Positions 1 through 30,501 of a stretch of 64,000 nucleotides of DNA are shown piece by piece; position 1 is the first letter of the stretch, and each line of letters begins with the position of its first letter. This DNA is from a virus, in the IMG/VR virus record IMGVR_UViG_3300017746_000001, positions 32,001-96,000 of that record; one strand, 5' to 3'. The notes beneath the pieces are model-generated. The model was not told the origin of the DNA and ran no database searches. It saw only the letters and a list, made by a program, of their open reading frames with translations. The position numbers and the translations under genes are program-made.

Positions 1-3000
1 GATTCTCAATTTCTATTGCTTGACCAGACATTGATTGTGTTAGGGGATTGGCCTTGGGTTGTTTGTAGTCTGATTCCCAAGGGAACGGAACTGGTTCTCC
101 CGCTAACCGCCTTGTATATTCTCTTTTTCCACCTTCGGAACCAAAGAATTCTCGCTCTCGGGTTTCATGGATATACTTGTGGCTGATTGATTGAGGGTTG
201 TCGCAAGTACAATATCCAGCAGGAGGAGGGATTTTGGCTCCTTTGGTTCTAGGTTCTCCATCCCATGTGGATTCGTAAAATAGGCCGCCGCAAGTACAGC
301 GTTCTATGCGTTTCCCGTTTTCATCTAAGAATACGGGGTTGTCTTGTACTGTTTGTTTCTCTAATTTTGCGTGGAGTTTTTTGATTCGAGGATGCCAAGG
401 GATTCTTTCTCCTTTCTCGGCTCTTGCTTTCTTTCTTGCTTGTTTCCGTAATACTTCTTTTCCAGATTCGGATTTCAACAGGGCTTGGATTACTTTTCTG
501 GGCAAGCATAATCGAGGTTTGCCCGATTTTGTTTGTGTGCCTTCTGCTCCGCATTTTTCTGAATAATCAATTTCACCTTTGTTGTTTACCTTTACAGATC
601 TCCAGTCTTGACTTATCCAACTGAATGACTGATACCCTGGTGCCATAGGATTTGATTTGATTCCACTTCTCTCTTGCCACTCATACGACACATCATCCTC
701 GTCTATTGGGCCTCCTGCAGCCCATGTGAAGCAGGTTCTTGCTGAATGGCACTTGAAGTGGTGCATCCAACAGTAGCCCAAGTAGCCGTCCTCATCCTCT
801 ATGTCCTGGGAGACTGGCCCAGGCATACAGTCCAACATTCTTGGAGAAATGTCGAAAGCAACGCAGTTCGAACACTTTGACTTCTTGGCTGTAGCTACAT
901 CTGTGTTCCAATGCTCTGCAGCATCTTCGTAGTATTTCTCGTCTGATAGGTTGAGTGGCCCGTATCTGATGTAGTCGGTCTTGATTGCACTATTCCTGTT
1001 CTTCGTGTTCAGTTCTAGATCTTGCGTAGCAGGAGGACAATCCATCGGAGGATTTGTCTTTGTCGGCCATTCAGATTTCGGCCTTCCAGAGCCGTAATCT
1101 TCGTCCCAACGGCCACCCCATGGGTCAAACTCTTCTTCGATGTATGCAACCTTAATCATTTCAGGAGAAATTGTGTCTGGACCCTTTGTTTCATCGTAGC
1201 CTTTGGTCCTGACAACATAGGATTCAGGAGGGTCTTTCATGTAAAAGGGCGTATCAGGGAGTGCGAAGATGTCTAATTCGCTTGCGTCAATTTCAAGCAC
1301 TACTGGCTTTTCATTATCTCCATCTTCAAAGTGATACAGCATCCTCGCTGCGCCTCTTGCATAGTCAAGAGCCCCACTTTTTGTTTTGGTCACAAATAAG
1401 CCGTGGGCTTTAGCAGAGCCGTCCTTTTTCCCCTCTTTCATGTATTTCTTTGCAAATCGCATTGATGTGCCGTGATAAAATGGGCCACTAGGTCTTTCTG
1501 AACCTTCAAGTTTGACGAAATTCGGAGGATTCCTATCTGCGGGGATTGACCCAGATAGACTTGTCTTTACTTTTAGTTCTCCAGTTAATGAGAACATAGC
1601 AAGATAGTGGTCGAAACTTTTCTTGAGAGATGGTTTATTCCATAAAATCCATTTCGATAAAGCACCTGCAGTAGTGAAATCTTCCCAATCTTCTCTTTTA
1701 GAATGGCGACTGTCGTATTGTTTCTTTCGCTCTGGATCATTATGTATTGTATAGTCCGAATAGGTCTTAGCACCAAAGTGAGTTGTCTTCTTTCTCCCGT
1801 CAGAGAATGAGAATACTGCTCGTAGCTTCTTATCCTTCTTCGGAGAACCGTCAATCACCACATGGACTCGGTTTAGTTCGTCTAGCTTATTCTTTAGCCA
1901 CCTGTATGTCTTGGGGGCTTTCTGTTTGAGTTTTGCTCGACCTTCACCTATTCCTGGAATGTAATATATGCTTTGATATTGCTTACTTGCTTCCTTGATT
2001 TTGTTTAGATCGTTTGACATCTTGCGTATGTTGCTTTCGTGTTCTTTGTCTGAATAGTAGGAGTCTGCTGTCGTCTTGGGCTTCTTTTTTGTTCTAAGCC
2101 CGATTGCATTCGGCTCATCTCGTATTTTCGCTTGACCCCCTTTTCCTTCTCTAAGGTCGTTGTCGCCAAATACGAAAAGAGTATTCTTGTTTTTCCTAAC
2201 ATACTCTGGTGTGATTTTCTTAGGAGGATTCATCTTGTATTCATCAACTTTTAATCCATAAGAACCATCAAGTCCTCTTTCAGTCAAGCGCATTGCGAGG
2301 AACTTACCTGCGTATGTTTCCCATACGAAGGGCGGTGCGTTGAGTGCAGAGGTAGCCATTCCCTCTGCGACATATGCTGGATATTCCAATTGTTCAAACG
2401 CTTGACGGTCCCCTTTAGCATATCGGTCTATTTGTTGAGGGCTGTATTCGAGTATTGTGGCTTCGTGCATAGCCTCATGTGCAATCGTTGAGACTGGTAT
2501 GTGATAGCCCCACCATTCGAGGAACCTTTTTTTATCTTCTTCTTGCATGTCAAATTGCTTTGCTAATCTGCGCCCAAGATGCATGATTGATACAAGGTCG
2601 ATGTTGCTTTCAAAGCCCTTTACGGGGATGATTTTCACATTATACACTTTACCGTCTTTGTAATTGACTCTTATAGCGACATGCCCGCCTCCTATTTCTT
2701 GAACACCGTCCTTCAATGAGATAACGCCCGTAGGGTTTGATTTTGTGGTTGGAACATACCTCATGTGATAATTAATGAATCCATTGTAGGATTTTTGCGC
2801 CCATCCGTCTTTTGCTACTGTTCTTTTTGCTACTGGCGCTCTGGTCACTTCTTCACCGCATGATTCACAAGTGTAGGTTTTCTTGTCTAATTTTTCTCTT
2901 TTTCCTGTACCGGATTGAATCCATGATGGATCTATTGAATCCCATTTTGCCACTAACTGTGCTTTTGGTTTCTTACACCCTTCATGTGTAGCGTACCAAT

Positions 3001-4351
3001 ACCATTCACCAGGTACAGACATTGTAGGAGGGTTTGTTATAGCCATGTTTGAGATTACCCTAGAGTGAATCTTAGATGCAGTCTGCTTTAGTTTGCCGTA
3101 TTTGTTTCTGATAATATAATCGAAGTTGTGTTTTTTGTAGTTTTTCTCCATCAAATTTCCTGATTTGATTCTTTGTTCAACAATCTTCTCTGGTTCTTTT
3201 CTTGACCTTATGATTTTTCTCCATTCATCTATCGGTCTATCGAGGGGAAGATATATCGAGAAGATTGGTGCTATTTCTGCTTTTCTCATTCTTTCTAGTG
3301 CCTTGAATGACTGATCTATAATCACGATAGGCGTTGCTGTCAAGTCAGATATTCTTCTCGCATATTTCTTCCCCCCGTAGTTCTCGAAGACGAGGTCTGT
3401 TCCGTTAGGAGCAGTAAATTCCCCCGATTCCCTCATCTTCTCGAACTTTGCATCAGTCACGGTCTTTATGTCAATGCCCTGCTTCTCATTGACCCTCTTT
3501 CCCCTTGTGGTGTATGTTCGGGCGAGGGAGGCCTTTTTTCCAAATAACTTCTTGAGTTCCTTCTGAACGCTGCTTTTCCCCATGCCAGAAGGCCCAGAGA
3601 TGGAAATAATCAACTGAGGCGGGAGTAGGTCTGCTAAAGGTGTGGGTGATACCTTTCGTGGTTGGACGGTGACAGGTGGGTTCCAAACTACCTCTCCTTT
3701 GGGGCTTAGAATCTCCAAGTGTGGAATCTTCTTCCCAAGTAGGGCCATTGCGTAGTTCCGGTGATTGCCTTCTCTGCCGATGCTTGGGTACATCAATCCG
3801 TTTTTCTCGATTGAATTCAACAATTCTGGTGACACCCATTTTCGTGCTTGCTTTCCAATTCTGACTTGATTCTGGTCTTTTTTGGATATTCCGAATGCTT
3901 CTTGTAATGCCAAGAATTTCTCATCAGTCATTTTGGCGACTTTGTAAGCCATTCTTAGGTCATCTGCCGATACAAGTTCTTGTATTCCAATGTGCCTCAA
4001 TTCATTAGGATTTATCAAGACTGCACGATATAGGGCGTCTTCTGCCTTTCCAGGTAATCCATAACCGCCATCTTCGATGCTTCTAAAGTGATGAATTGCG
4101 TCCTCTTTCAGTGATGTTCCGACTGGCCCATATTCCTTTTCCATTGCGATAATCATGCGCCCTGTTTCATCTCCAGGCAGTTCATCAAATTTGTAGATTC
4201 GTCCTGGTTCGAAGTCGAAGTGGGTTGTGTATGGTATTTCTTGTGGGTTGAAGGAAATCGTAGGAGATATTAGATCCGCATACAGCAGGTGCGGGTGCTT
4301 TATTGCAGCATTACCTGGAAAGAACGGTGAGCCTTCTCTCGGGTCTTTCAA
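1..4351 (-). CDS. Giant multi-domain (polyvalent-like) protein, 3'-truncated at the window edge; modules separated by NP/NPP motifs
   Basis: Manual translation: TTG at 4351 (4-nt overlap with the upstream TGA, GAGGGG upstream), open with no stop to position 1 (~1450 codons). Modules: ParB-like (EGNHR), guanylate-kinase-like (GPSGMGKS, YTTR), HEAMH zincin, FVFGDN..GKGGQA, DUF5754-like, ART-like (FYHGTS), Cys-rich domains. Confidence 0.85.
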   Translation of the reverse strand, partial: MKDPREGSPFFPGNAAIKHPHLLYADLISPTISFNPQEIPYTTHFDFEPGRIYKFDELPGDETGRMIIAMEKEYGPVGTSLKEDAIHHFRSIEDGGYGLPGKAEDALYRAVLINPNELRHIGIQELVSADDLRMAYKVAKMTDEKFLALQEAFGISKKDQNQVRIGKQARKWVSPELLNSIEKNGLMYPSIGREGNHRNYAMALLGKKIPHLEILSPKGEVVWNPPVTVQPRKVSPTPLADLLPPQLIISISGPSGMGKSSVQKELKKLFGKKASLARTYTTRGKRVNEKQGIDIKTVTDAKFEKMRESGEFTAPNGTDLVFENYGGKKYARRISDLTATPIVIIDQSFKALERMRKAEIAPIFSIYLPLDRPIDEWRKIIRSRKEPEKIVEQRIKSGNLMEKNYKKHNFDYIIRNKYGKLKQTASKIHSRVISNMAITNPPTMSVPGEWYWYATHEGCKKPKAQLVAKWDSIDPSWIQSGTGKREKLDKKTYTCESCGEEVTRAPVAKRTVAKDGWAQKSYNGFINYHMRYVPTTKSNPTGVISLKDGVQEIGGGHVAIRVNYKDGKVYNVKIIPVKGFESNIDLVSIMHLGRRLAKQFDMQEEDKKRFLEWWGYHIPVSTIAHEAMHEATILEYSPQQIDRYAKGDRQAFEQLEYPAYVAEGMATSALNAPPFVWETYAGKFLAMRLTERGLDGSYGLKVDEYKMNPPKKITPEYVRKNKNTLFVFGDNDLREGKGGQAKIRDEPNAIGLRTKKKPKTTADSYYSDKEHESNIRKMSNDLNKIKEASKQYQSIYYIPGIGEGRAKLKQKAPKTYRWLKNKLDELNRVHVVIDGSPKKDKKLRAVFSFSDGRKKTTHFGAKTYSDYTIHNDPERKKQYDSRHSKREDWEDFTTAGALSKWILWNKPSLKKSFDHYLAMFSLTGELKVKTSLSGSIPADRNPPNFVKLEGSERPSGPFYHGTSMRFAKKYMKEGKKDGSAKAHGLFVTKTKSGALDYARGAARMLYHFEDGDNEKPVVLEIDASELDIFALPDTPFYMKDPPESYVVRTKGYDETKGPDTISPEMIKVAYIEEEFDPWGGRWDEDYGSGRPKSEWPTKTNPPMDCPPATQDLELNTKNRNSAIKTDYIRYGPLNLSDEKYYEDAAEHWNTDVATAKKSKCSNCVAFDISPRMLDCMPGPVSQDIEDEDGYLGYCWMHHFKCHSARTCFTWAAGGPIDEDDVSYEWQERSGIKSNPMAPGYQSFSWISQDWRSVKVNNKGEIDYSEKCGAEGTQTKSGKPRLCLPRKVIQALLKSESGKEVLRKQARKKARAEKGERIPWHPRIKKLHAKLEKQTVQDNPVFLDENGKRIERCTCGGLFYESTWDGEPRTKGAKIPPPAGYCTCDNPQSISHKYIHETREREFFGSEGGKREYTRRLAGEPVPFPWESDYKQPKANPLTQSMSGQAIEIEN

Positions 4352-7305
4352 TCCAAAGACCCCCTCTGAGCTAGTAATGCCTCCTTCTCATCCTCCTCTT
4401 CGACAAATGCCCTGAATTTTGGCCTTGCTGCTCTCTCTATGTCCTTTGAGTCAGGTAATTTAGTTCGAGGGTGCGCTTTGAGATACCAAGGAACAGGTTG
4501 TAGCGAATCTAATCTAATCTCATTCACCGTTCTTCTCAGCCCGTATTTCTTTGGAATTCTTATCGTCTGAACCGCCCAGTTCTCAACAGTATCTCTTAGT
4601 TTCCCTGCTATTACTAATCCACCTTCATACCCGTCGTATCTTTCGTTCCATCCGATTATGTTCTTTACGAAATCCCTGTCCTTTTTCTTATCTAGGTTGA
4701 ATGTTCGGAGAATGGCCTTTCCAGACTTGTCTCCTGTGTGTTTGAACTTCCAAGGCGGAATCTGTCTGTGACTGGAGAAATTCGCTGTAGGAGGATTCAG
4801 GCTTGCTGCTATCAAAGCCTCAACGCTTGGTTCGAACTCATTAGGAATGAAGGGCTCAGGGCCGTTTATCTTGAACTGGTCAAGAGAAATGTCTGATAGG
4901 AACACTTTGCCTTTGTCTGTTTCGTATTCGGACTTAGCAGTAAGTGTTTCACCTTCGTCTACATTGAAGTCAAGCCCTTCAATGACGGATCTTATTCCAA
5001 CCACTCTAGGGTTGACTAAGTCAGGTAGTTGCTTTACATCAACGATTGAAATTCTTGAAAGCCCTCTTATTTTTTCTGGAACACCCCTAGGAGGAGCAGT
5101 TTGGCCTACAGGCATAACTGGAGATACTTGCATTTCTCTCATCCGGCCTGTTTCTGGGTCTTTGTACTTCATAGGAGGCGTTTCATCCCTCATCCTATCC
5201 TCTGCTGCTGACTTTGCTCTGTCCAAATTATCAACTAATTGAGTTGTTCGTGAATATATTGGTTGCATTTTCAGATTCATATTCTCGAATTCCACTTCAA
5301 GGATCAAATCTGACTCTAATGGATCCACAAATACCATGTTGCCGTCTTGATGTGTTGCGTATTCTGATAAATGAGATAGTAGGGCTCTCCTGTCTTGAAC
5401 ACTTATTCCTCTGAATGCCCCTACTTTACCTATTGAATTGAATAATGTTTTTTTCTTCTTTTTTGTTCTTATTTTTTCACCCGTATTTGCATCGATTACA
5501 GGCTTTTGTATTTCTCCTTCGCTTACTACTCCTAGGAGGACTGTTCCGATTTCTCCATTCTCGAACCTCTTTCCTTTAGCTTCGAACCCTAGAACTGTTG
5601 CTGTGGCTTTCATTCTTTTCTTGTAGTAAGATGTTTTACCTGCAACAATTACCCCTAGTTCGATTGCATTTCCATTGATTACTTCATCTTCGAATACAGA
5701 TAGTGCCTCTCCCGAACTGTGCTTTACAGGCATTATGTTCTCTCCGATTAAATGTGCAAGTTCCTCTAGGTCTTTCTTGGCATCTTTGCTGTTTATTCTT
5801 CCTTCGATGTGTAAAGTCACATTCTCCCAGTCCGAAGATTCGAAAGACAGGAGTTTTGCAGGTAGGTTGGGGTCAATTGTCGGCTTGGATGCTAAAGTTC
5901 CAAAGATTACTTCTTCTTTGCCCTCATCCATCATAGCGTCTATTTGCGCTAGTTGTATTATGCCTGCTCGAACTGAACCGTCTTTGAAACCCGCCATAGT
6001 TGAGCTTCCAGAGTTTGCATTTACTACTACGCTTCTTCCATAAGGAACCGCGAATGTTATTTCTGGGTCGTCAGGCAATATTTCTATTTCCTCTGTTTTC
6101 TCTCTCCTATGTTTTCTCTCGGCCTCGCCCAGTTTGTCATTGTTTACTTCCATTATTCGTTCTTCTTTGGGGATTTTTGATTCTTTAATCAATCCTGCCC
6201 CTCGTAAGAATGAGAACACTATCGGAGCATGCACACCTATATTGTAGGCCGCCACTAAAGGATGCCCGTCATATGCGGGATCGTATTCATCATTATGTAT
6301 TGGCACTATAGCATAGCCCATTCCAGTCAGATTGTGTGAGAAAAATCCCTTCTTGTTGCTTGAGGTCTTACTAGGAGGCCTAGGTATGTCTAAAGATAGT
6401 GGACTTAATGAACTAGATGTTGGATAACTTGCTTCAACTTTATCGGTTTTACCAGAACCCTCTAGCACCTTTGTACCGATGCTCTCGAATCCTACATCTG
6501 CCGCTACTGCTTCTGGGCTTTCATTTAGTATGAAAAGAAGCATTTTCCTCAATCCAGCACCGCAGAGCATAGTTTGAACGCCCTTTTCGTTAAGCCTTAA
6601 CTCGAAGTCTTGGGCGATTGCGACTTCTGGCCTTCTTATGTTCCTACTTGCAGTCAATTCTATTACAGTAATCCCCTCTATATTGAACCCCGTAGTTTCT
6701 GAGGACAATGCAGACTTCAACCTACCCTTCGTTACATTGAATCCTGCCCTGTCTTTCTCTTCCAAGATTCTTTCGAGATATGATAGAACTCTCTTTCTAT
6801 ATGTGTTGTGTAATTCATTCAACCTTTCGATTCTCATTAGTGTCTTCTCATCACCTAAGCCTTCGTTGACAACAGTTAGTAGGCTTACAGGGTATTTCTG
6901 AAGCTCTGAAAGGTTCGGACCCTCCCTAGATCTGCGGCTCTCAAGCCTATGCATGACTCTAGCATTCCCTTCGAATAACTCTGCTACCACTTGAATTGGC
7001 ACACCAGGGTAGTCCTCTTCCAATATGATAACTGGCCTCCCATGACCAAACTTCTTTTTCTTAATCCCCCATGAAATAGATGCTGTAGGCTCTGCGAGTT
7101 GTGCGCCTGGGGCTAATGTATTCGCAGTTCGAGGGAGAAAGAAATCTTTAGGAGATTTGGTTAGGAAAGCCCCGTTCCTTCCGGTTGAAGTTATTATGCT
7201 AGCCTTTGCTCTCTGGGCAAACTTGTCCTCGCTGAGTTGAGAGAACCTAAAATATGGGCTGTTCTTGAGAATGTAAGTAGCCGTTTCAGGTAAGCTTGTC
7301 TGCAT
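4348..7305 (-). CDS. Large protein with divergent ATP-dependent DNA ligase-like (OB-fold) region
   Basis: 985 aa; ATVLGF..IGTVLLGV..IGKVG..VFVDP..ILEVEF..NPRVVGIR resembles the ligase C-terminal OB domain; no canonical KxDG motif. Confidence 0.55.
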   Translation of the reverse strand: MQTSLPETATYILKNSPYFRFSQLSEDKFAQRAKASIITSTGRNGAFLTKSPKDFFLPRTANTLAPGAQLAEPTASISWGIKKKKFGHGRPVIILEEDYPGVPIQVVAELFEGNARVMHRLESRRSREGPNLSELQKYPVSLLTVVNEGLGDEKTLMRIERLNELHNTYRKRVLSYLERILEEKDRAGFNVTKGRLKSALSSETTGFNIEGITVIELTASRNIRRPEVAIAQDFELRLNEKGVQTMLCGAGLRKMLLFILNESPEAVAADVGFESIGTKVLEGSGKTDKVEASYPTSSSLSPLSLDIPRPPSKTSSNKKGFFSHNLTGMGYAIVPIHNDEYDPAYDGHPLVAAYNIGVHAPIVFSFLRGAGLIKESKIPKEERIMEVNNDKLGEAERKHRREKTEEIEILPDDPEITFAVPYGRSVVVNANSGSSTMAGFKDGSVRAGIIQLAQIDAMMDEGKEEVIFGTLASKPTIDPNLPAKLLSFESSDWENVTLHIEGRINSKDAKKDLEELAHLIGENIMPVKHSSGEALSVFEDEVINGNAIELGVIVAGKTSYYKKRMKATATVLGFEAKGKRFENGEIGTVLLGVVSEGEIQKPVIDANTGEKIRTKKKKKTLFNSIGKVGAFRGISVQDRRALLSHLSEYATHQDGNMVFVDPLESDLILEVEFENMNLKMQPIYSRTTQLVDNLDRAKSAAEDRMRDETPPMKYKDPETGRMREMQVSPVMPVGQTAPPRGVPEKIRGLSRISIVDVKQLPDLVNPRVVGIRSVIEGLDFNVDEGETLTAKSEYETDKGKVFLSDISLDQFKINGPEPFIPNEFEPSVEALIAASLNPPTANFSSHRQIPPWKFKHTGDKSGKAILRTFNLDKKKDRDFVKNIIGWNERYDGYEGGLVIAGKLRDTVENWAVQTIRIPKKYGLRRTVNEIRLDSLQPVPWYLKAHPRTKLPDSKDIERAARPKFRAFVEEEDEKEALLAQRGSLD

Positions 7306-10857: not shown

Positions 10858-13800
10858 TCACCTCATTTCGTATTTTGCACCGCAGTCGTGGCACTTGTAT
10901 ATCCTGCCATTCTTCATCAATTTCACTTCGCTACCACATGGCTTGCTTCGCTTGGTTTTCTTGTAAGTGCATTTCAATTTGGGAGATGATTCCGCCCTAC
11001 TTGTGTATTCTCCTGACTTGAATTTATCATGGCCGCACTTCTCGCACTTGTCTTTGAGGCTTTTCATCGTCTGCCTGTGTCCACATTTTTGACATTCTGC
11101 AGTTATTGGGTTGCTCTTTGGAGGTTTAGTCATCTTGATAGCGTCTGCAGTAGCGATCAGAGTCAGAGTAACTGTTTGCGAAATCATCTCGTAGTCTACT
11201 TTCAAGTTGGCAACAGCGTTGCCTCCTTTTGCTTTCGCTCTGTCAGAGAGTTCTTGTTGCATACTTGCTATAGCCATAGCCATTCTTTTTTCGGCCATTG
11301 ATGTCCTTCCACCAATAAGTCCTCGGTATATGCCTTGAACTGTCTCGCCAATATCTTTTACGAAGTTTCTTCCGATTTGGACTTCGGATGAAACCAGGCC
11401 TTTGTTAGTGAACTTAGATGATGGCGCACCTGCGTAAATAGGGAGAACATTTGCGGGGTTGCTCTTTACCTCGCCTCGAGCGAATTTATTTTGAAAACTC
11501 TTTGAGAATTTTGGTTTTGACTGAGGTATCGTATTGAATCCTTTCTTGTTGGCTTTACCTATTTCTTTTTGAGATACTACGATATACACATTCCCCTTTT
11601 GCATTATCACATATTCTTGACCGTGTTCTGCCGCCACCATATCTTGTAGTGCTTTGGCATGATTTAATCCATTTGCTTGAAGAGAGGCAGGTAAAGGAGG
11701 GTTTTTCTTAGTTGGTCCTTTACCAAAATCCACATCACCACTTGACTTTATGAAACCAATTAATTTCTCTTTATTTTCTTTGTCATATCGGTCTACATCT
11801 TTCCAAAACTCGTATAATTTAAGGGGGCTTCCGGCTACTGCTTTATATTGTTCTGCAAGTTCCATTACTTTAGTCATGTCTCCTGTTCCCATTGCGTCCT
11901 TGCCTGATAGGAGGGCTCCCGTATTTGTCTCTACGGTGCTGTCATCTTCTTCGGTGGCTTCTGCTTCCTCTTCTTTTCTATCCGCTTCTGCCTTAGAGGT
12001 CCACTGGTCGAATTCTTCGAATACTGGGCCTGAGTTTGATTGGAAGTCTATTCCGGCCTGGCCTATTTTTCCGAGTAAATCGCTAGGAAGGCCAGGGCGC
12101 TCTCCGGAGTCTCCTTCCCATGTGTCTTTCCACAATTTCTTCGCATATTCTTTGTTCTCTTTTTTAGTCTTCGCCGCATCATCGGATTTATTATGATAGG
12201 CTGCAAGCTTCCTAAAGAAGTTGATTTTTTTATCATAGTCTAGAATATCTTGTGAAAGTTCTGTGCCGTATGGCATGATGCTTGCCCTGCTCGTTACCCC
12301 TAGACCTTCGATTGCTCTCTCTGCAATACTAGGTTCTTCAACCGCAGGCTCCGTATCACCTAGAGGGTTAAGCATAGTGTAAAGCAACAGAGTCTCTGCT
12401 TCTTTCAGATCATAGTTGTATAGTGACTTCGCTCTAGCGGCAATGATGAATAATAAGTCAAGGCCGTTAATCCTTCCTTGTGGGTCTTGTGCTACTTCTG
12501 CATACTCATCTAATATTTGCATTGTTGGGATGACCCATTTCGAACTCCAACCCTTCGGTTGTTTTCTAAATCCGCCCGAGAATAGAGGCACCAAGTAAAA
12601 TCCACTCGTGCCTTTAATCGGGAACGCTAGTTGCATTTTCACTAATTCATCCATCTTTCTTTTCTTAATTTTCATATTTTTTTGGTTATCATTACCATCA
12701 ACACCTCCTACAAGGAAGAGGTCTTCGAATGATTCTCCATCGACTCTGTCATTATTCGCCCTGTCTAAACTATAATTGATATTTCTACGAATGTTTGCTG
12801 ATGTGATTTTTTCTGCAGCGCCGAAATCCCTGAATCCAATGTCAATCACGCCTTTTGTAGATTCGAATGCCCTTGAGGACGCATTGAAGATTGCCTTTGC
12901 CGCCTCATTTTCATTTTGATTAAAGGCTGCAAGTAGTCTGTTTGCAGATTTTTCCGCGTTTTGTCTAACGAACACAGGTGTTGGGGTTGAATCTTTTTTT
13001 GACGGAGAGACTTCTCCAAGGAGGAAGTCCCACCATGCATTATATTTGGGTTTCTTTGGAGGCCTTTGGTTTTGCCCTAGGTCAAATATGTAGTGTATTA
13101 CATGAGGCTCTGTCATATTGACTGCAGTAGGAGCTATACTGTTCAGGAACTTTTCATTCAAACCTTTTGACTCACTTTGAGTGCCGAGATAAGGCGATAT
13201 TTTTTGCAAATATGGCACATTGTTTAGCCTTGTACCGTGATATGCATTAATTATCCTCGCGAAATCTTTCTGTGTTCTTTCTGTCCTGTCTATGTATTTT
13301 TCATGTCCCTTCAACAAACCGTCAATAAGTGTTTCACGGCTTATTCCTGTAGTTTCTAGATAATTGTCAATCTGTTCTCCACTTACTTCTCCAGGTACTC
13401 CGATTAATCTTGCCATGTCTTCATAACTATTGTAAATTCTAGTTCTGATTTGATCTCTAAGTTGTCTTGCATTTTTAGATGAGACAACTTCGGAACTTGT
13501 AGGTTTGAATCCACGAATTTGCGCTCTTATCCTCTTGTCTGTCGAACCCCTTAGTTTGATAGGTCGAGCAGATGGTGATTTGAAACCGGAAGTAATCTCT
13601 GCCATAGTACGGAATGTCCCTGCTTCATTCATCCTTTTTGCTTGATCTATCTTAGCCATATCGGGAAATAACTTTCTAGATAATTCAGATGACTCGAATC
13701 TTTCTACGGCCTCTGTCGCTTTAGTAGCACTTTCTTCTTCGCTCTCGAAAGGATTGTTCAAAATTATTTTTTCGCTTGGTAAGATGTATATTTTGTCTTC

Positions 13801-14064
13801 GTTGATTACTGCATTCATAGCAGACATCAAATCTATTTCTGTGAGGACTGTCATATCTTTTTTCTTGTTGTATCTCCCTTTTGCTATGACAGTTTCATTA
13901 TTTTGGAATCTGTCGCTTGTCAAAGAGCCCCCATGACCCTTTCTCTTTATTTCATCTCTCTTCATGGCTAATATCGGCATGAAAGCGGCAATTTTCCTGT
14001 CTTTGATTTTATCTCTTTCTTTCCTTGAGAAATTCAGAGGAGTTATTCGCCCTTTTACATTCAT
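10858..14064 (-). CDS. Multi-domain protein with YbjQ (UPF0145)-like domain and C-terminal Zn ribbons
   Basis: 1068 aa; GLVSSEV.IGRNFVKD..GGR..AKAKGGNAV..L..DYE..ATADA is YbjQ-like; CxxC pairs at the C-terminus; NP motifs at module boundaries. Confidence 0.75.
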   Translation of the reverse strand: MNVKGRITPLNFSRKERDKIKDRKIAAFMPILAMKRDEIKRKGHGGSLTSDRFQNNETVIAKGRYNKKKDMTVLTEIDLMSAMNAVINEDKIYILPSEKIILNNPFESEEESATKATEAVERFESSELSRKLFPDMAKIDQAKRMNEAGTFRTMAEITSGFKSPSARPIKLRGSTDKRIRAQIRGFKPTSSEVVSSKNARQLRDQIRTRIYNSYEDMARLIGVPGEVSGEQIDNYLETTGISRETLIDGLLKGHEKYIDRTERTQKDFARIINAYHGTRLNNVPYLQKISPYLGTQSESKGLNEKFLNSIAPTAVNMTEPHVIHYIFDLGQNQRPPKKPKYNAWWDFLLGEVSPSKKDSTPTPVFVRQNAEKSANRLLAAFNQNENEAAKAIFNASSRAFESTKGVIDIGFRDFGAAEKITSANIRRNINYSLDRANNDRVDGESFEDLFLVGGVDGNDNQKNMKIKKRKMDELVKMQLAFPIKGTSGFYLVPLFSGGFRKQPKGWSSKWVIPTMQILDEYAEVAQDPQGRINGLDLLFIIAARAKSLYNYDLKEAETLLLYTMLNPLGDTEPAVEEPSIAERAIEGLGVTSRASIMPYGTELSQDILDYDKKINFFRKLAAYHNKSDDAAKTKKENKEYAKKLWKDTWEGDSGERPGLPSDLLGKIGQAGIDFQSNSGPVFEEFDQWTSKAEADRKEEEAEATEEDDSTVETNTGALLSGKDAMGTGDMTKVMELAEQYKAVAGSPLKLYEFWKDVDRYDKENKEKLIGFIKSSGDVDFGKGPTKKNPPLPASLQANGLNHAKALQDMVAAEHGQEYVIMQKGNVYIVVSQKEIGKANKKGFNTIPQSKPKFSKSFQNKFARGEVKSNPANVLPIYAGAPSSKFTNKGLVSSEVQIGRNFVKDIGETVQGIYRGLIGGRTSMAEKRMAMAIASMQQELSDRAKAKGGNAVANLKVDYEMISQTVTLTLIATADAIKMTKPPKSNPITAECQKCGHRQTMKSLKDKCEKCGHDKFKSGEYTSRAESSPKLKCTYKKTKRSKPCGSEVKLMKNGRIYKCHDCGAKYEMR

Positions 14065-16433
14065 TTTTTAGCCCCCCATCTAAGTGCTACTGGACCCATT
14101 TTCTTGCCACCCGATAGTCTAGCATCATATACTAGGCTACCATTTAGTTGTACTTGAGAAACATACAAGTTGCTTGCGTTTTCTATTCCAGGTGAATGAC
14201 CTTCTGATTGGAATTGTTTCGCTACACCTCGGTTGTAATTTACCTTTTTTGATTTGACTAACGGATCGTATGAACCCTTTACAGTTAAGTCTTTGACGAA
14301 AGTTAGATTTCCGAAATCTCTTTCTATTCGCTTGAGGAGTTTTCTGACTTGTGCTGTTGACTTTGAGCCTTTGCTAGCTACAAGCCTACCCGATGAAAGG
14401 TCGTGCTTGGCTAAAATTCTAGGGAGAATGATTCTGTGAGGCACTAAGTTCCCGTTGTCCTTTCTCTTAGCATAGAGAATTTGCATCTTAGGATGACCTT
14501 TGTCCACTTGGTTTCCACTTTTGTCTAATGCGGCTTGCAATAGTTGTTTGGAACCGTACTTCTTACCTCGCCACCTTAGTTTGTCCGGTATTTGCCCTTT
14601 GCCATAGTTATCATACAATTGCTTCAAATCCTCTTCCTTCACTACCTTTTTTAGATACTTCATAGATGGGTGCTTTTCGGTTAGAGTTTTCACATCTATT
14701 TGACTTCTTGGCACTACATCAATTGCTATGGCCTTACCTATTGCCCCCCTAGGGTTCTTCTTCACCTTGCCCCTTCCAGTCTCGGTTTGTCTCAAATCAA
14801 TTTCTCCACCAATTTCTGTGGCGGAATCTACTTCTTCTACTAATGCGGCATCTGTGAATGCGTCGCTGTAATTCTTCGCTCTCCCTAGATCTTCGACGAA
14901 GAAATCAGTAGGCAATATATAAAATGAATCTTCTTTCGCAATTGATGTCGGCCATTTCTTACCAGGCACCTTCCTCAAAGTTACTGTTAGAGTACCTTTT
15001 GGAACTAGGAAGTCGTTTTCTATACCTACTGAAAGGTTGGCGTGTATGATGAACCGTAGAGAAATCGAATCTTGATTAGGCCATTTTGAGAATATTTTTT
15101 TTTCAGGCGTGGATTTACCAGTCAATGCCGCATGGAAAATTGGGATCCAATTTGTTGTGAGATAATTTGCACTTGGTTTGATTGCTGTCAACCCCAATGT
15201 ACCTCTAGTGTTTTTGGTTTTAGCGATTTCAATGTTATCGTTACTGCCTCCCATTGCTAAGTTGCTTTGGTTTGCTGTTTTCATCACTTCATGCATTTTT
15301 GTTGATTTCCAACCATCTCTTGTCGGAGGCATCGACATATCTAGTGATACTAGCAAGGGCTCTGGACTTCCTTTGAATGAGATTTTCGCCTTGTTACTGT
15401 TGTTGTTGTTGTTGTTGTTGTTGCCGCCACCGCCACGATTACGATTGTGACTACTAGAAGCACTACGCCGATTGGCGACACTACCAGGGAGGTATGTCAA
15501 GGAAGATGCGGTGATTACGAACATATCCTTCAATCCTGTTTGGAATGTACTCAGATCCATTCCGTATTCATCTTGTATCGCATCTAGATTTTTCCTAGCA
15601 GTTCCTATTTCTCCCTTCTCGAATGCCTCAACAGCGTTTTTCGCTAGTTCGAATGCTTGGAAAATATGAGTCCCTATACCTTTTCCACTCGATGTCACTA
15701 TGTTTTTTGAGCTTTGAGAAAGTGCGATACTGAATTTCTGTAGGTTGCCATCCATAACAAGTCTCTTTAGGGCTTGAATTGCATCTATTTCCGAATCTTC
15801 CATCGGTTCTGGTCTTGGAAATATTTGCTCGCCAATTTGAGGGTCGTCTAATGTTATCTGAGCTATTGTATATCTGTTGTAAGAATTTACAGGCAGATTA
15901 TTTAGAATTCTTATATGAAGCCCAGGTAAGTCGTGAATATCTAGACCTCTGAAAGATTCCATCTTCTTAGAGAAATCTGGACATTGCGATATTATTTCTT
16001 TGTCCCAAGAAAGGTCAGAGACTTCGTTTCCTATTCTGAGTACACTCTTTTCGTTTGCACCCGTAATCATCCAGTATAGAAAATCCCCTATTACAGCCGC
16101 TTCGAATCTGTCATATCCATCCGGCACTTGAGACAAGTAGTTTGCATGGTCTCTATCACTATTGGACCAATCCTCTGCAAACTCGAACAATGTTTCCCTA
16201 ACAATTACAGGTAATTTTTCTGTATTGCTGTAATTCTTGATTTGTTTTTGTGTCAGAGAGTTTATCATGCCATACAAGTCATCTATTACAGGATATTTCG
16301 ATACTGTTGCTAGAGTTCTTTCCCTTCCTGGTTTTTTCAGCAATTTTGTTTTACTGAATGCCTTCGGTTGTTTATCATAGAATCTTTCTGAGTCTCCTAC
16401 CGGATTCTTCTTGATGACTTTCTTCCTTGGCAT
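14061..16433 (-). CDS. Hypothetical protein with KKNP motifs and a poly-Gly/Asn linker
   Basis: 790 aa ORF; basic C-terminal module after VKKNP. Confidence 0.8.
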   Translation of the reverse strand: MPRKKVIKKNPVGDSERFYDKQPKAFSKTKLLKKPGRERTLATVSKYPVIDDLYGMINSLTQKQIKNYSNTEKLPVIVRETLFEFAEDWSNSDRDHANYLSQVPDGYDRFEAAVIGDFLYWMITGANEKSVLRIGNEVSDLSWDKEIISQCPDFSKKMESFRGLDIHDLPGLHIRILNNLPVNSYNRYTIAQITLDDPQIGEQIFPRPEPMEDSEIDAIQALKRLVMDGNLQKFSIALSQSSKNIVTSSGKGIGTHIFQAFELAKNAVEAFEKGEIGTARKNLDAIQDEYGMDLSTFQTGLKDMFVITASSLTYLPGSVANRRSASSSHNRNRGGGGNNNNNNNNSNKAKISFKGSPEPLLVSLDMSMPPTRDGWKSTKMHEVMKTANQSNLAMGGSNDNIEIAKTKNTRGTLGLTAIKPSANYLTTNWIPIFHAALTGKSTPEKKIFSKWPNQDSISLRFIIHANLSVGIENDFLVPKGTLTVTLRKVPGKKWPTSIAKEDSFYILPTDFFVEDLGRAKNYSDAFTDAALVEEVDSATEIGGEIDLRQTETGRGKVKKNPRGAIGKAIAIDVVPRSQIDVKTLTEKHPSMKYLKKVVKEEDLKQLYDNYGKGQIPDKLRWRGKKYGSKQLLQAALDKSGNQVDKGHPKMQILYAKRKDNGNLVPHRIILPRILAKHDLSSGRLVASKGSKSTAQVRKLLKRIERDFGNLTFVKDLTVKGSYDPLVKSKKVNYNRGVAKQFQSEGHSPGIENASNLYVSQVQLNGSLVYDARLSGGKKMGPVALRWGAKK

Positions 16434-28292: not shown

Positions 28293-29075
28293 TCATCTGA
28301 ACCCCTTTGGTATGAGTCTATTCTCCTTTGGCGTTAAATCGTAATTCTCCACCAGAAGAGGAATGTAACTAGAAATTCTGACTGATTTCCCTAGCTCGAA
28401 AGGATGAATCAGTTCTACAGGAAACCAATCATGGCCGAACATTGGGTTTGGACTAAATGTTTTTGTCGCTAACATAACATGAGAATATGCTCCTTTCGGA
28501 CCCCCTGCATCCACTATAAGCAACATTGACGGATAGCCTGCCGCATTTAGGGCGCATGCACACGCGGCTGCTATATCGTCGCAATCCGCGCCTGATTCGC
28601 CCGCTTGAATATCTCTGATTACTTTTGGTGGGCTTTGAAAATACTCTACCGAATACGGGTCTTTTTGGTATCGATAAGAGCCTTGGTCGCCATATAGCAG
28701 AGGCTTTCCGATTTCATTGTTGCCTACATTATTATGATTAGTGCCTTGGAAATACGAAACGATTGCTTGTATTTCACCCAATTCATCGTGGTTTCGTAAT
28801 TTTTTTGTATTGAAGAGGCGACGAGTGAATTGTATCACTTCTGGGTCTGCAACATATTTTGATGCCATTTCTTGAAGTATCCTTATTGTTCTTTCGAACG
28901 CTCTTGGATCACCATTGAAAGTAAATCTTGCTTGTTGTTTGACACCACCCGATGTTGAGACACTATGGCTTTCGTCAGCGCCCCATCTTGCTCTTGCGAT
29001 AGGGTTCGAAAATGCTGCTAGCCCCTCACCCATGTTAGTCGCATAGGGGTATAGAGGATAAACTCGACCCGTCAC
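28293..29075 (-). CDS. Transglutaminase-like cysteine protease/cross-linking enzyme
   Basis: RYQKDP..EYFQSP..GADCDD..YSHV..W.PVE pattern with Cys-His; GTG start at 29075 inferred from the duplicated N-terminus. Confidence 0.8.
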   Translation of the reverse strand: MTGRVYPLYPYATNMGEGLAAFSNPIARARWGADESHSVSTSGGVKQQARFTFNGDPRAFERTIRILQEMASKYVADPEVIQFTRRLFNTKKLRNHDELGEIQAIVSYFQGTNHNNVGNNEIGKPLLYGDQGSYRYQKDPYSVEYFQSPPKVIRDIQAGESGADCDDIAAACACALNAAGYPSMLLIVDAGGPKGAYSHVMLATKTFSPNPMFGHDWFPVELIHPFELGKSVRISSYIPLLVENYDLTPKENRLIPKGFR

Positions 29076-29086
29076 ACCGTTACGGT
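29040..29086. repeat. 47-bp exact direct repeat, copy 2
   Basis: Identical to 17740-17786. Confidence 0.95.
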
Positions 29087-30501
29087 TGTTCAAAATCTGA
29101 AAGTATCATTTGCCCATCTTCGATTGTGATTCCTCGGCCTTGAAGTGATTGTTCGAATCGTGTTATCGCCCGACCCATTCTTTCTGTAAAAGCGGCTCTA
29201 TCTGCCTCAAATGTATCATTCCATACTGCATTACGCCTTTCTTCTTCGCGTAATCTTCTCTCTTCTTCCCTGGTAATCATTTCTTCGTATGTGTTATTCA
29301 TCTTCTCAATAAGGTTGAGTAGTTGCGTTTGCATGTTATCTGCTATTCTTGTAGTAGTGTTAACTGCGTTTTCCTCGATGATTTCTATTTGCTCGCTAGC
29401 AAGTTTACCTACATTCTCTCCAACGCCTTCAACGACTTTCATCAACGAGTCTAGTGTCATAACAGGGTTTGCTTGCATGGCGGCTTGCTTGCCTGTTTTT
29501 GCATCTAAATGAACTATGTTGTCCTTAAGCAAGTCGTGAGAACCGTCTGCCGTGATGCCATCGGCCATCCGAAGCATCCTTGGCTCGCCTGATTTCCTCC
29601 TTCTGATGACTTCTTTTGCTAATTCAGGGTCGTACCTAGATACTCCGAACTCCATTTCTTGTGAGTTCTTTTGCTTAGGGAAACCGAATGTCCACCCGTA
29701 TTCTTTAGACAATTGCCCCATTATATCCCATAGGACTTTTGCAACCCTTTGCTTAATTGTATCTTCATCCATAGCTTCTTCGGCAGTTACAGGCATTCGC
29801 CCAGGCATCGTTAGCCGTACAGGGTGTCCATCACACCAGTCACCATATACTAATCCTTGATCAGTTTCCTTGACCTTCCTCTTAAAATGCACTTTCCATG
29901 TTCCGACTTCCGTCTGTATTTCTGGAGCATTGAACGATTGCCACCCCCTAACGACCCTTCCCGATGGCCTAACACCCATTCTTTCGAGTTGCTGTATGTC
30001 GAATTGATGCGCTTTTCCGCCTCTAGCCCCGTTTGTATCGATTGGGAGGTTCCAATCTAGGCGGTGAATGTCGATTACAGGCATAACACCCCCTGGTAGT
30101 GGTGTCCAGACTGCCTGCTCACGATGAACCCCCATATTAGACTGCAACTTAGTGATGTTATTCTCCATTTCAACGCTTCTAGCCCCTGGCTTGTATGCCT
30201 TGAACCTCAAACTAACAGAGCCTTTTCTTACCTGTTCAAGCTCCTTTTGATGTTCTATGTAGTTGTTGGACTGAACGATGTACTGCTCGTCAATCAATTT
30301 CTTTATCCATCTGCTAGTTGTTGACTTGTTAATCTCTAAGGTTCGAGTAATGTTAGCAGCGATCTGCCCCTCCCGAATTATTAGATAGTAAATTGCTGCC
30401 TTTTTCGTCAGAGTTCTTCCAGTAGCCCACCAAGTTGCAATCATGGTTGCGGTATCTGATGTCATGTGCAACTTGGCCTCCTGGAAGTTTGGCGGGTGCA
30501 A
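29080..30501 (-). CDS. Winged-HTH protein with C-terminal coiled coil (possible replication initiator or regulator)
   Basis: 473 aa; AANITRTLEINKSTTSRWIKKLIDEQYI is MarR/wHTH-like; true start may be downstream (MTSD). Confidence 0.6.
   Translation of the reverse strand: MHPPNFQEAKLHMTSDTATMIATWWATGRTLTKKAAIYYLIIREGQIAANITRTLEINKSTTSRWIKKLIDEQYIVQSNNYIEHQKELEQVRKGSVSLRFKAYKPGARSVEMENNITKLQSNMGVHREQAVWTPLPGGVMPVIDIHRLDWNLPIDTNGARGGKAHQFDIQQLERMGVRPSGRVVRGWQSFNAPEIQTEVGTWKVHFKRKVKETDQGLVYGDWCDGHPVRLTMPGRMPVTAEEAMDEDTIKQRVAKVLWDIMGQLSKEYGWTFGFPKQKNSQEMEFGVSRYDPELAKEVIRRRKSGEPRMLRMADGITADGSHDLLKDNIVHLDAKTGKQAAMQANPVMTLDSLMKVVEGVGENVGKLASEQIEIIEENAVNTTTRIADNMQTQLLNLIEKMNNTYEEMITREEERRLREEERRNAVWNDTFEADRAAFTERMGRAITRFEQSLQGRGITIEDGQMILSDFEQP

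Follow-up and report, generated by a model that had tools for sequence, protein, structure and literature searches.

The window analysed here is a 64,000-nucleotide stretch of viral DNA, bases 32001-96000 of IMG/VR record IMGVR_UViG_3300017746_000001, itself a complete sequence of 128,784 bp with direct terminal repeats. At its left end lies part of a giant open reading frame (ORF) in which about 15 complete small proteins are joined head to tail in one gene, with nearly every joint tagged by a short motif centred on an Asn-Pro (NP) dipeptide. Sequence comparison with relatives from marine metagenomes indicates that this tag is under selection of its own, and we discuss the possibility that the chain is a polyprotein cut at the tag.

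Within the window the ORF occupies positions 2..4351 on the minus strand (residues 1-1450), a single open frame of 1,450 amino acids that runs off the left edge. Followed into the rest of the record, the frame was found to extend to genome base 29896, giving an ORF of 2,151 residues whose remainder (genome 29896-32000, or L002:9896-12000, minus strand) lies to the left of the window and includes a module resembling JAMM peptidases. No stop interrupts the frame over these 2,151 residues, in keeping with the original prediction, made from the letters of the window, of a frame open from 4351 to the edge. The TTG start codon overlaps the TGA stop of an upstream 985-residue gene as TTGA (window 4348-4351), and is credible because relatives have an ATG start at the same residue. 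All ten NP positions listed in that prediction (4249, 3682, 3034, 2737, 2230, 1531, 1054, 652, 340 and 49) proved to be Asn codons of NP dipeptides. Three further NPs lie in the window, at 4012, 199 and 4, and comparison with relatives identified at least two chance sites: those at 4012 and 4 are not conserved, and that at 199 is without a breakpoint.

The dipeptide occurs 19 times in the 2,151-residue ORF against 5.5 expected from composition and is its top-enriched dipeptide; none of 20,000 shuffles of the ORF reached 19, the maximum being 17. In the remaining 121 ORFs of at least 100 amino acids encoded by the genome, pooled, NP was found 96 times against 78.0 expected, and the giant ORF was the only one of this size class to pass p < 0.001 for NP excess. 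The longer pattern [KR]xNP was counted nine times in the giant ORF against 0.87 expected. Codons at the NP sites (AAT 10 and AAC 9; CCT 11, CCA 5 and CCC 3) were as mixed as those in the rest of the ORF, so that the signal lies at the level of the protein and not of the DNA, and a DNA-level word acting in recombination or initiation at the joints was ruled out. On the basis of NP conservation and loss across relatives we counted about 15 real joints and three to four chance NPs, the latter close to the chance expectation of 5.5.

In a word-indexed search against 5.8 billion proteins we obtained 50 giant proteins of 1,324-3,518 amino acids, including the ORF's own record (P0003); their sources are marine metagenomes, with contigs of up to 140 kb. 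NP was in excess in all 50, with observed to expected ratios of about 2.0 to 3.8. Their precomputed Pfam content varied and comprised guanylate kinase, DUF5754, DUF7831, DNA and RNA ligase, NUDIX, glutaredoxin, GNAT, M48 peptidase and TFIIS. Related loci, 82 in all, were gathered via the C-terminal JAMM-like module, the motif of which was borne by 85 ORFs, four of these being upstream ORFs caught by the loose pattern and possible false picks. The 85 ORFs contained 843 NPs against 283 expected and 435 [KR]xNP against 42.6, while the corresponding figures for the 487 neighbouring ORFs of the same loci were 737 against 423 and 155 against 53.7. The family was then reduced to 28 non-redundant representatives with 462 NP sites, 458 of them internal.

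BLASTP comparisons among the 28 representatives showed where homology between these proteins begins and ends. Of 2,202 distinct internal alignment ends, 45% fell within 5 residues of an NP, compared with 8.3% of random positions. Viewed from the sites, 322 of the 458 internal NPs lay 6 residues or fewer from an alignment end, compared with 267 of 1,120 random positions (24%), and the outcome that the original prediction had named as counting against it, an NP frequency no higher at module boundaries than elsewhere, was not what we observed. Breakpoints were also concentrated at the fuller form of the motif, being found at 244 of 294 NPs with Lys or Arg at position -2 or Pro at +2, against 78 of 164 plain NPs (Fisher p 4e-15). 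When the representatives were cut at NP, the resulting 490 segments grouped into families of near-fixed length whose order differs between proteins; in segment cluster 1, for instance, 18 of 20 segments measure 215-220 amino acids and the other two 179 and 207. The proposal that this gene is a chain of unrelated modules with NP(-P) at the joints, and that relatives have exchanged modules precisely at NP, is borne out by these comparisons.

The 442 distinct joint contexts gave the consensus [P/I/V/A]-[K/R]-x-N-P-(P), with Lys at -2 in 161, Arg at -2 in 49 and Pro at +2 in 152. The dipeptide is retained better than its surroundings: in alignments running across an NP with identity under 60% (504 site instances, which are not independent), the Asn was kept in 60% and the Pro in 68%, compared with 22-40% for the ten columns on each side and 40% overall. 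A collinear block of eight sequences of 43-72% identity illustrates this at the level of single sites. All eight sequences have the NPs at 1559 and 1700, and six or seven have the pair at 1926 and 1936; the NP near 1798 is found in seven of the eight, displaced by 4 positions, and those at 1450 and 1521 occur in one and two sequences, respectively.

One module of the chain was also found as a gene on its own. The Cys-rich module (residues 1101-1234; window 650..1051, minus strand; cluster 9) matched at least 599 IMG/VR stretches at 64-80% identity, and 142 of the loci (L088-L229) yielded 74 distinct complete ORFs on other IMG/VR contigs. In 56 of the 74 the module, again at 64-80% identity, is free-standing (ORF of at most 200 amino acids, mostly 136-150). 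These 56 ORFs end a median of 3 residues past the alignment, which itself stops at residue 129 of the 134 of the module, and not one of them has NP in its last 8 residues. As the free-standing ORFs end near the position of the tag and lack it, the module corresponds to a whole gene product and carries the tag only in the chain. This module was among the most widespread small viral genes met in the analysis, and one cultured-phage record names it 'high potential iron-sulfur protein'.

The last module of the ORF (residues 1937-2151; L002:9899-10543, minus strand, just outside the window) is the one that resembles JAMM peptidases. It was found in 20 of the 28 representatives, placed either last or second in the chain. 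Residues E54, H91, H93, S103 and D106 are invariant in all 13 aligned copies and form the E..HxH..S..D pattern of JAMM enzymes, with the spacing HxH-x9-SxxD. An AlphaFold2 model of the module was obtained with a predicted local distance difference test score (pLDDT) of 92.0 and a predicted template modelling score of 0.89. Comparison of this model with 48,161 chains using VIA-align 2 gave JAMM/MPN-fold proteins, or complexes containing them, as 15 of the 16 best matches, the sixteenth being an unnamed structural-genomics protein. PfJAMM1 (5ld9; Z 5.9, root-mean-square deviation 3.8, 106 aligned residues) was at the top, and 3jck_G (Z 5.8), Cap3 (9ild, 5.8), RadC (2qlc, 5.7) and BRCC36 (5cw3, 5.6) were among the others, as was Rpn11. 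We consider assignment to the JAMM/MPN fold, made on a predicted model, to be of moderate confidence. A profile search of 1.84 billion representative proteins found only 81 matches to the module; of the matches with sufficient length to be complete, most are giant chains exceeding 1,000 residues in which the module sits either at residues ~110-325 or at the C-terminal end, and the short matches begin or end inside the alignment and were therefore read as fragments. By this measure of sequence the module is private to the family, and a tblastn search of cultured phages gave no match to it. One giant relative, P0028, is without the module, and the next ORF on its contig, with overlapping stop and start, encodes an NP-rich protein of 1,107 residues that carries it. 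G001, the one complete relative examined, also has the module.

The remaining modules, all on the minus strand, are described here in their order along the chain. An N-terminal leader of 35 residues that ends in SFNP (4247..4351) is 89-94% identical in five representatives with differing next modules. A second architecture was observed in which a conserved acidic C-terminal tail, (G/S)WRHGE..DDPF..F, follows the last NP (for example in L038-L041, L058, L059 and L075); leader and tail both give the impression of terminal pieces with their own function. Residues 36-224 (3680..4246), previously labelled ParB/Srx-like, occur in relatives as a single segment, from which the internal NP at residue 114 is absent, and had no match in Pfam and only chance rows in a PDB-profile search. 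The guanylate kinase module (residues 225-440; 3032..3679) was matched by Pfam PF00625 (E 5.4e-12, residues 251-417), by PHROG 1815 and by PDB guanylate kinases down to E 1e-10, and belongs to cluster 0, which has 27 segments. Between ITNPP and KSNP lies a CxxC module (residues 441-539; 2735..3031; cluster 32) with sub-threshold Pfam matches. It is followed by a module in which the HExxH motif HEAMH can be read (residues 540-708; 2228..2734), for which neither a relative among the 28 representatives nor a Pfam match was found; it is therefore not the protease that the family shares. A double module (residues 709-941; 1529..2227) consists of DUF7831 (PF25176, E 4.6e-36, residues 711-821) and DUF5754 (PF19058, E 3.9e-14, residues 831-883) with no NP between the two. 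In relatives, 16 NP-bounded segments contain DUF5754 by itself, and cultured phages of Caulobacter and Rhizobium encode DUF7831 as a small separate gene. The module with the YHGTS motif (residues 942-1100; 1052..1528), previously labelled ART-like, remained below threshold both for PF18760 ART-PolyVal (E 0.18, 13 bits against a cut-off of 31.2) and for Tpt1 RNA 2'-phosphotransferase structures (E 0.12-0.86). After the Cys-rich module comes a W..CG..RLCLP module (residues 1235-1338; 338..649), one of the 15 segments of 104-108 amino acids in cluster 3, which takes different positions in relatives, and then small segments of 47, 50 and 15 amino acids (residues 1339-1450; 2..337) that lead into the collinear block beyond the window. 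The names given to modules in the original prediction were hence upheld by Pfam for guanylate kinase and DUF5754, left below threshold for ART, and matched by no family for 'ParB/Srx-like' and 'zincin', which were named on motifs only.

The tag is also present in neighbouring large genes of the window. BLASTP aligned the 985-residue gene directly upstream (4348..7305, minus strand) with ~980 N-terminal residues in six longer relatives, P0024 (E 1e-122), P0031, P0048, P0028, P0049 and P0041, in which it is therefore fused to the chain. Its NPs, at residues 765 and 837, both fall in NP columns common to the relatives. The same chain is spread over one to three ORFs in different viruses, and in L087 the split lies further downstream. 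A ligase-like identity for the 985-residue protein (Atlas 0.89-0.91, 153 shared features) was set aside as too weak. In a gene of 1,068 residues (10858..14064, minus strand) the C-terminal part contains [KR]xNP three times, at residues 788, 869 and 985, with the Pfam domain YbjQ_1 (residues 888-975) exactly between two of them, and a gene of 790 residues (14061..16433, minus strand) has KKNP at residues 10 and 560. Together these two proteins hold 5 of the 12 [KR]xNP sites found outside the giant ORF. None of the neighbouring large ORFs matched a structural family in PHROGs or Pfam. That the 985-, 1,068- and 790-residue proteins share the tag of the chain hints at a trans-acting factor.

Further genes of the virus bear on the interpretation given below. 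A protein of 266 residues (28293..29093, minus strand) resembles the transglutaminase core, a papain fold, according to language-model features: its Atlas feature scores were 0.94-0.97 to clusters in which 14-82% of members have PF01841. It had no Pfam or PHROG match, and a homologue of 58% identity was found in G001, the one complete relative searched. Directly downstream of the giant ORF, at genome 28242-29744 (L002:8242-9744), is a group II chaperonin (thermosome) gene (Pfam Cpn60_TCP1, E 2e-101), homologues of which occur in the examined flanks of 31 of the 82 related loci. A 254-residue AAA ATPase gene follows at genome 27441-28205, with homologues in the flanks of 47 of the 82 loci, and neither the neighbouring ATPase nor a 473-residue gene gave a tblastn match in cultured phages. 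Outside the window, at L003:2417-3370, the genome encodes a serine recombinase (Pfam Resolvase, E 5e-36, and Recombinase). The unassigned 'group D' elements of the 2017 magrovirus paper likewise carry a thermosome and a resolvase, together with an RNA polymerase subunit (PMC5434244), a likeness that we treat as resemblance only. Six RNA libraries hold 8-21% of the sampled words of window 1-4400, as short contigs. These contigs (three studies, 150-450 bases, mostly matching at 99% or more) were rejected as evidence for one transcript, because there was no informative bridging and DNA carry-over was possible; gaps between them carry no meaning either.

From the observed architecture, the tag, its conservation and the protease-like module, we infer a route by which the giant protein might be processed. 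About 15 complete and independently evolving small proteins would be translated in one frame, the tag would serve as a recognition site, and the chain would be cut there, probably on the Asn-Pro bond itself or immediately beside it, thereby freeing the modules in equal amounts. This reading is suggested because a conserved motif sits in otherwise variable joints, is kept although its position drifts, is absent from the free-standing module and is accompanied by a protease-like module private to the family. Cutting of the chain at the tag is the reading that we favour over the others, with a chance that we judge to be about even. The prime candidate for the cutting enzyme would be the JAMM/MPN-type zinc peptidase module, which occurs only in this family and closes the ORF, although we hold it less likely than not to be the cutter. 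The second candidate would be the virus's own transglutaminase-like protein with its cysteine-protease fold; that either this protein or a host enzyme is the cutter seems unlikely. The hydrophobic residue and the basic one after it, which precede the presumed cut by two to three positions, recall the Leu-Arg of the Leu-Arg-Gly-Gly tail read by JAMM enzymes, in resemblance only.

Several points weigh against cleavage by such an enzyme. The tag itself is uneven, the second Pro being present at only 152 of the 442 distinct sites, and the composition within 12 residues of the joints is near average, with no obvious long disordered linker. A short leader followed by a tag is not enriched at the N-termini of ORFs, with 6 cases against about 14 expected at mean density among 524 ORFs, and the idea of an N-terminal mini-leader, which had come from P0023, the 790-residue ORF and the 1,107-residue ORF of L087, was dropped as anecdotal. 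ORFs of 446-489 amino acids near the left end of loci L038, L044, L053, L056, L067, L073, L077 and L082 are rich in [KR]xNP through zinc-ribbon knuckles of the form C..CG.K.NP....C..CG, and not every KxNP can therefore be counted as a joint. As regards the enzyme, all VIA-align 2 Z-scores are below 8, a range that possibly reflects a common arrangement; Foldseek returned nothing at E <= 0.001 (best 0.025), with weak matches rich in MPN proteins; no Pfam family was found at E <= 1 for residues 1441-2151; and the PDB profile search with the module gave chance rows only and no JAB chain. The canonical JAMM spacing from HxH to Ser is x7, shorter than the x9 seen here. The bond that characterised JAMM enzymes cut follows Gly-Gly, most proteases are unable to cleave X-Pro bonds readily, and no JAMM metalloprotease is known to have a specificity for cutting before proline at K/R-x-N-P. 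RadC is among the best structure matches of the module, and the RadC-type JAB domains of polyvalent proteins have been argued to be nucleases and not peptidases (PMC5512222). Structure prediction was of little help at the joints: an AlphaFold model of residues 930-1345, spanning three modules and four joints, had a mean pLDDT of 47 and was uninformative on domains that span joints, and prediction of a complex between the JAMM-like module and a 40-residue stretch across the IKSNP joint gave no answer, either for or against binding.

That no cutting takes place at all is a substantial possibility, if short of an even one. In the form that we find most worth weighing, and still rather doubt, the chain is a beads-on-a-string multi-enzyme protein, and so a polyvalent protein in the strict sense, in which the tag is structural or kinetic punctuation: a helix cap or turn that keeps adjacent folds apart or, at N-P-P, a point of slow translation that gives a module time to fold ahead of the next one. 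Independent beads would account equally well for the free reordering of modules, and a protein that is giant and hard to fold would suit a virus with a chaperonin gene directly downstream, and with homologues of that gene at 31 of 82 loci. Several polyvalent proteins are transferred uncut (PMC5512222). The joint flanks are also not clearly linker-like in composition. Against this stands the motif itself, since linkers rarely preserve a motif of five positions, basic at -2 and hydrophobic or Pro at -3, from one pair of unrelated modules to another; the tag is moreover retained while its position drifts, and two tags often lie within 25 residues of each other (41 of 434 gaps in the 28 representatives). 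Pro-Pro, on which slow translation would draw, is found at only one third of the sites. The free-standing form of the Cys-rich module without a tag, and a protease-fold module private to the family, likewise sit poorly with an uncut chain.

The tag could instead be a binding mark for a partner that is not a protease, such as a packaging or docking factor or the viral chaperonin, a version of the virion-docking tag offered in the original prediction; we regard this as improbable. A mark of this kind would explain why neighbouring large proteins carry the tag too, one of which, the 985-residue protein, is fused to the chain in relatives, and would give a use to the short conserved end-pieces, namely the 35-residue leader and the acidic NPGWRHGE..DDPF tail. 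At least 0.98 of the sampled words of window 1-4400 are present in each of fourteen DNA runs, ten of them labelled viral metagenome, as packaging might lead one to expect; all fourteen are possible sources of the record and may include its source sample. The neighbouring large proteins, on the other hand, gave no structural match in PHROGs or Pfam, at least 15 docking copies per chain are hard to explain, and the recognised modules are household enzymes (a kinase here; ligases, NUDIX, glutaredoxin and acetyltransferase in relatives), which are not typical capsid cargo. The analysis gave no support to the packaged effectors, or to the docking tag, of the original prediction. Breakage of the Asn-Pro bond without any protease, whether by attack of the Asn side chain as in the NPTH of FlhB/YscU, in RsgI and in the reovirus mu1 autocleavage, or by ribosome skipping of the 2A type, is an established chemistry in the case of FlhB/EscU and RsgI and yet very improbable here, given that NPTH and NPGP each occur at none of the 462 NP sites, that known autocleaving Asn-Pro bonds lie inside a dedicated straining fold whereas the modules flanking these joints are mutually unrelated, and that upstream conservation is confined to -3 and -2 while the 2A signal, which ends in N-P-G-P, needs a longer upstream peptide.

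Of the known systems, viral polyproteins and above all polyvalent proteins come nearest to the ORF; the joints and the module swapping hold, and cleavage is plausible. The African swine fever virus precursors pp220 and pp62 are cut at Gly-Gly-X by pS273R, adenovirus protease has sites of its own, and polyproteins coded by cleavage sites are classical in RNA viruses. As in our reading of the ORF, the African swine fever virus and adenovirus precursors hold several mature proteins in one ORF with joints marked by a short motif, which the protease of the virus itself recognises. Their products are structural core proteins released by a separate papain-like cysteine protease, whereas the chain described here consists of enzymes, is tagged with K/R-x-N-P and contains a candidate JAMM module. 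With the JAMM/MPN+ proteins (PfJAMM1 5ld9, Rpn11, AMSH, CSN5 and Cap3 of CBASS) the closing module shares the Glu, His-x-His, Ser and Asp residues of the metal site, and in structure comparison its modelled fold tentatively matches theirs. It differs from them in having no sequence-level match to a Pfam JAB family or a PDB chain, in its x9 spacing in place of x7 and in its length of ~215 residues with an extra helical C-terminal part, and its putative substrate ends in Asn before Pro where theirs end in Gly-Gly.

The polyvalent proteins described by Iyer, Burroughs, Anand, de Souza and Aravind in 2017 (PMC5512222) are like the ORF in combining many unrelated enzyme domains in mosaic, fast-changing architectures. 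They include JAB (RadC) and ART domains, and an embedded peptidase has been proposed to process them and release their domains (PMC5512222). The presence of multiple disparate catalytic domains in one viral polypeptide, by which such proteins are recognised, was seen in Pfam matches both here and in relatives. The recognised modules of the ORF are mostly household enzymes of metabolism and nucleic acids, whereas the polyvalent core consists of methylase, SNF2, ParB and MPTase domains, and no common joint motif of the kind carried by nearly every joint here was seen in that paper, the main text of which does not use the word 'linker' (PMC5512222). The earlier suggestion that the ORF belongs with the polyvalent proteins that combine zincin, ART and ParB domains found no support: the HExxH module has no relative among the 28 representatives, ART is sub-threshold and ParB is unmatched. 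The zinc protease PPEP-1 recognises Asn-Pro-Pro after a hydrophobic residue and cuts VNPPVP between the adjacent prolines (PMC10413326), and one third of the joints here have the form x-N-P-P. Firmicutes secrete the PPEPs, whose substrates are surface adhesins (PMC10413326); two thirds of our joints are without the second Pro, and no PPEP-like domain was found in this system. In FlhB/YscU/EscU (NPTH) and RsgI the same dipeptide breaks, but inside one conserved fold and not between unrelated modules. A literature search covering 8.1 million PMC papers and 0.36 million preprints gave, among its best-ranked matches, no description of such joints in viruses of prokaryotes. The word 'polyprotein' is absent from the main texts of two papers on Poseidoniales viruses, PMC5434244 and PMC11706807, and proteins of this kind may appear in the gene tables that supplement the magrovirus and Poseidoniales papers.

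In its fullest form, which we put forward as possible if doubtful, the proposal is that large marine DNA viruses, probably of archaea, make 15-25 changeable accessory enzymes as self-processing polyproteins, that a family-private JAMM protease cuts these at K/R-x-N-P before the proline, and that genes are added between tags. Should cutting take place at the tag, viruses of prokaryotes would here be expressing proteins as polyproteins, by means of a code that is simple to read and a protease specificity that is new, and tag and enzyme together would make a compact natural toolkit for multi-protein expression. Should the chain remain uncut, the tag would be an unusually clear conserved domain-boundary signal that domain-prediction methods could use. 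If the tag is cut, the code would allow giant 'hypothetical proteins' of marine metagenomes to be split into real units, at least 81 representatives being known to carry the JAMM-like module. The Cys-rich module shows accessory genes moving between free-standing and chained states, and the chain, if the proposal is true, would be the protein-level counterpart of a gene-cassette array, to which genes are added by insertion between two tags.

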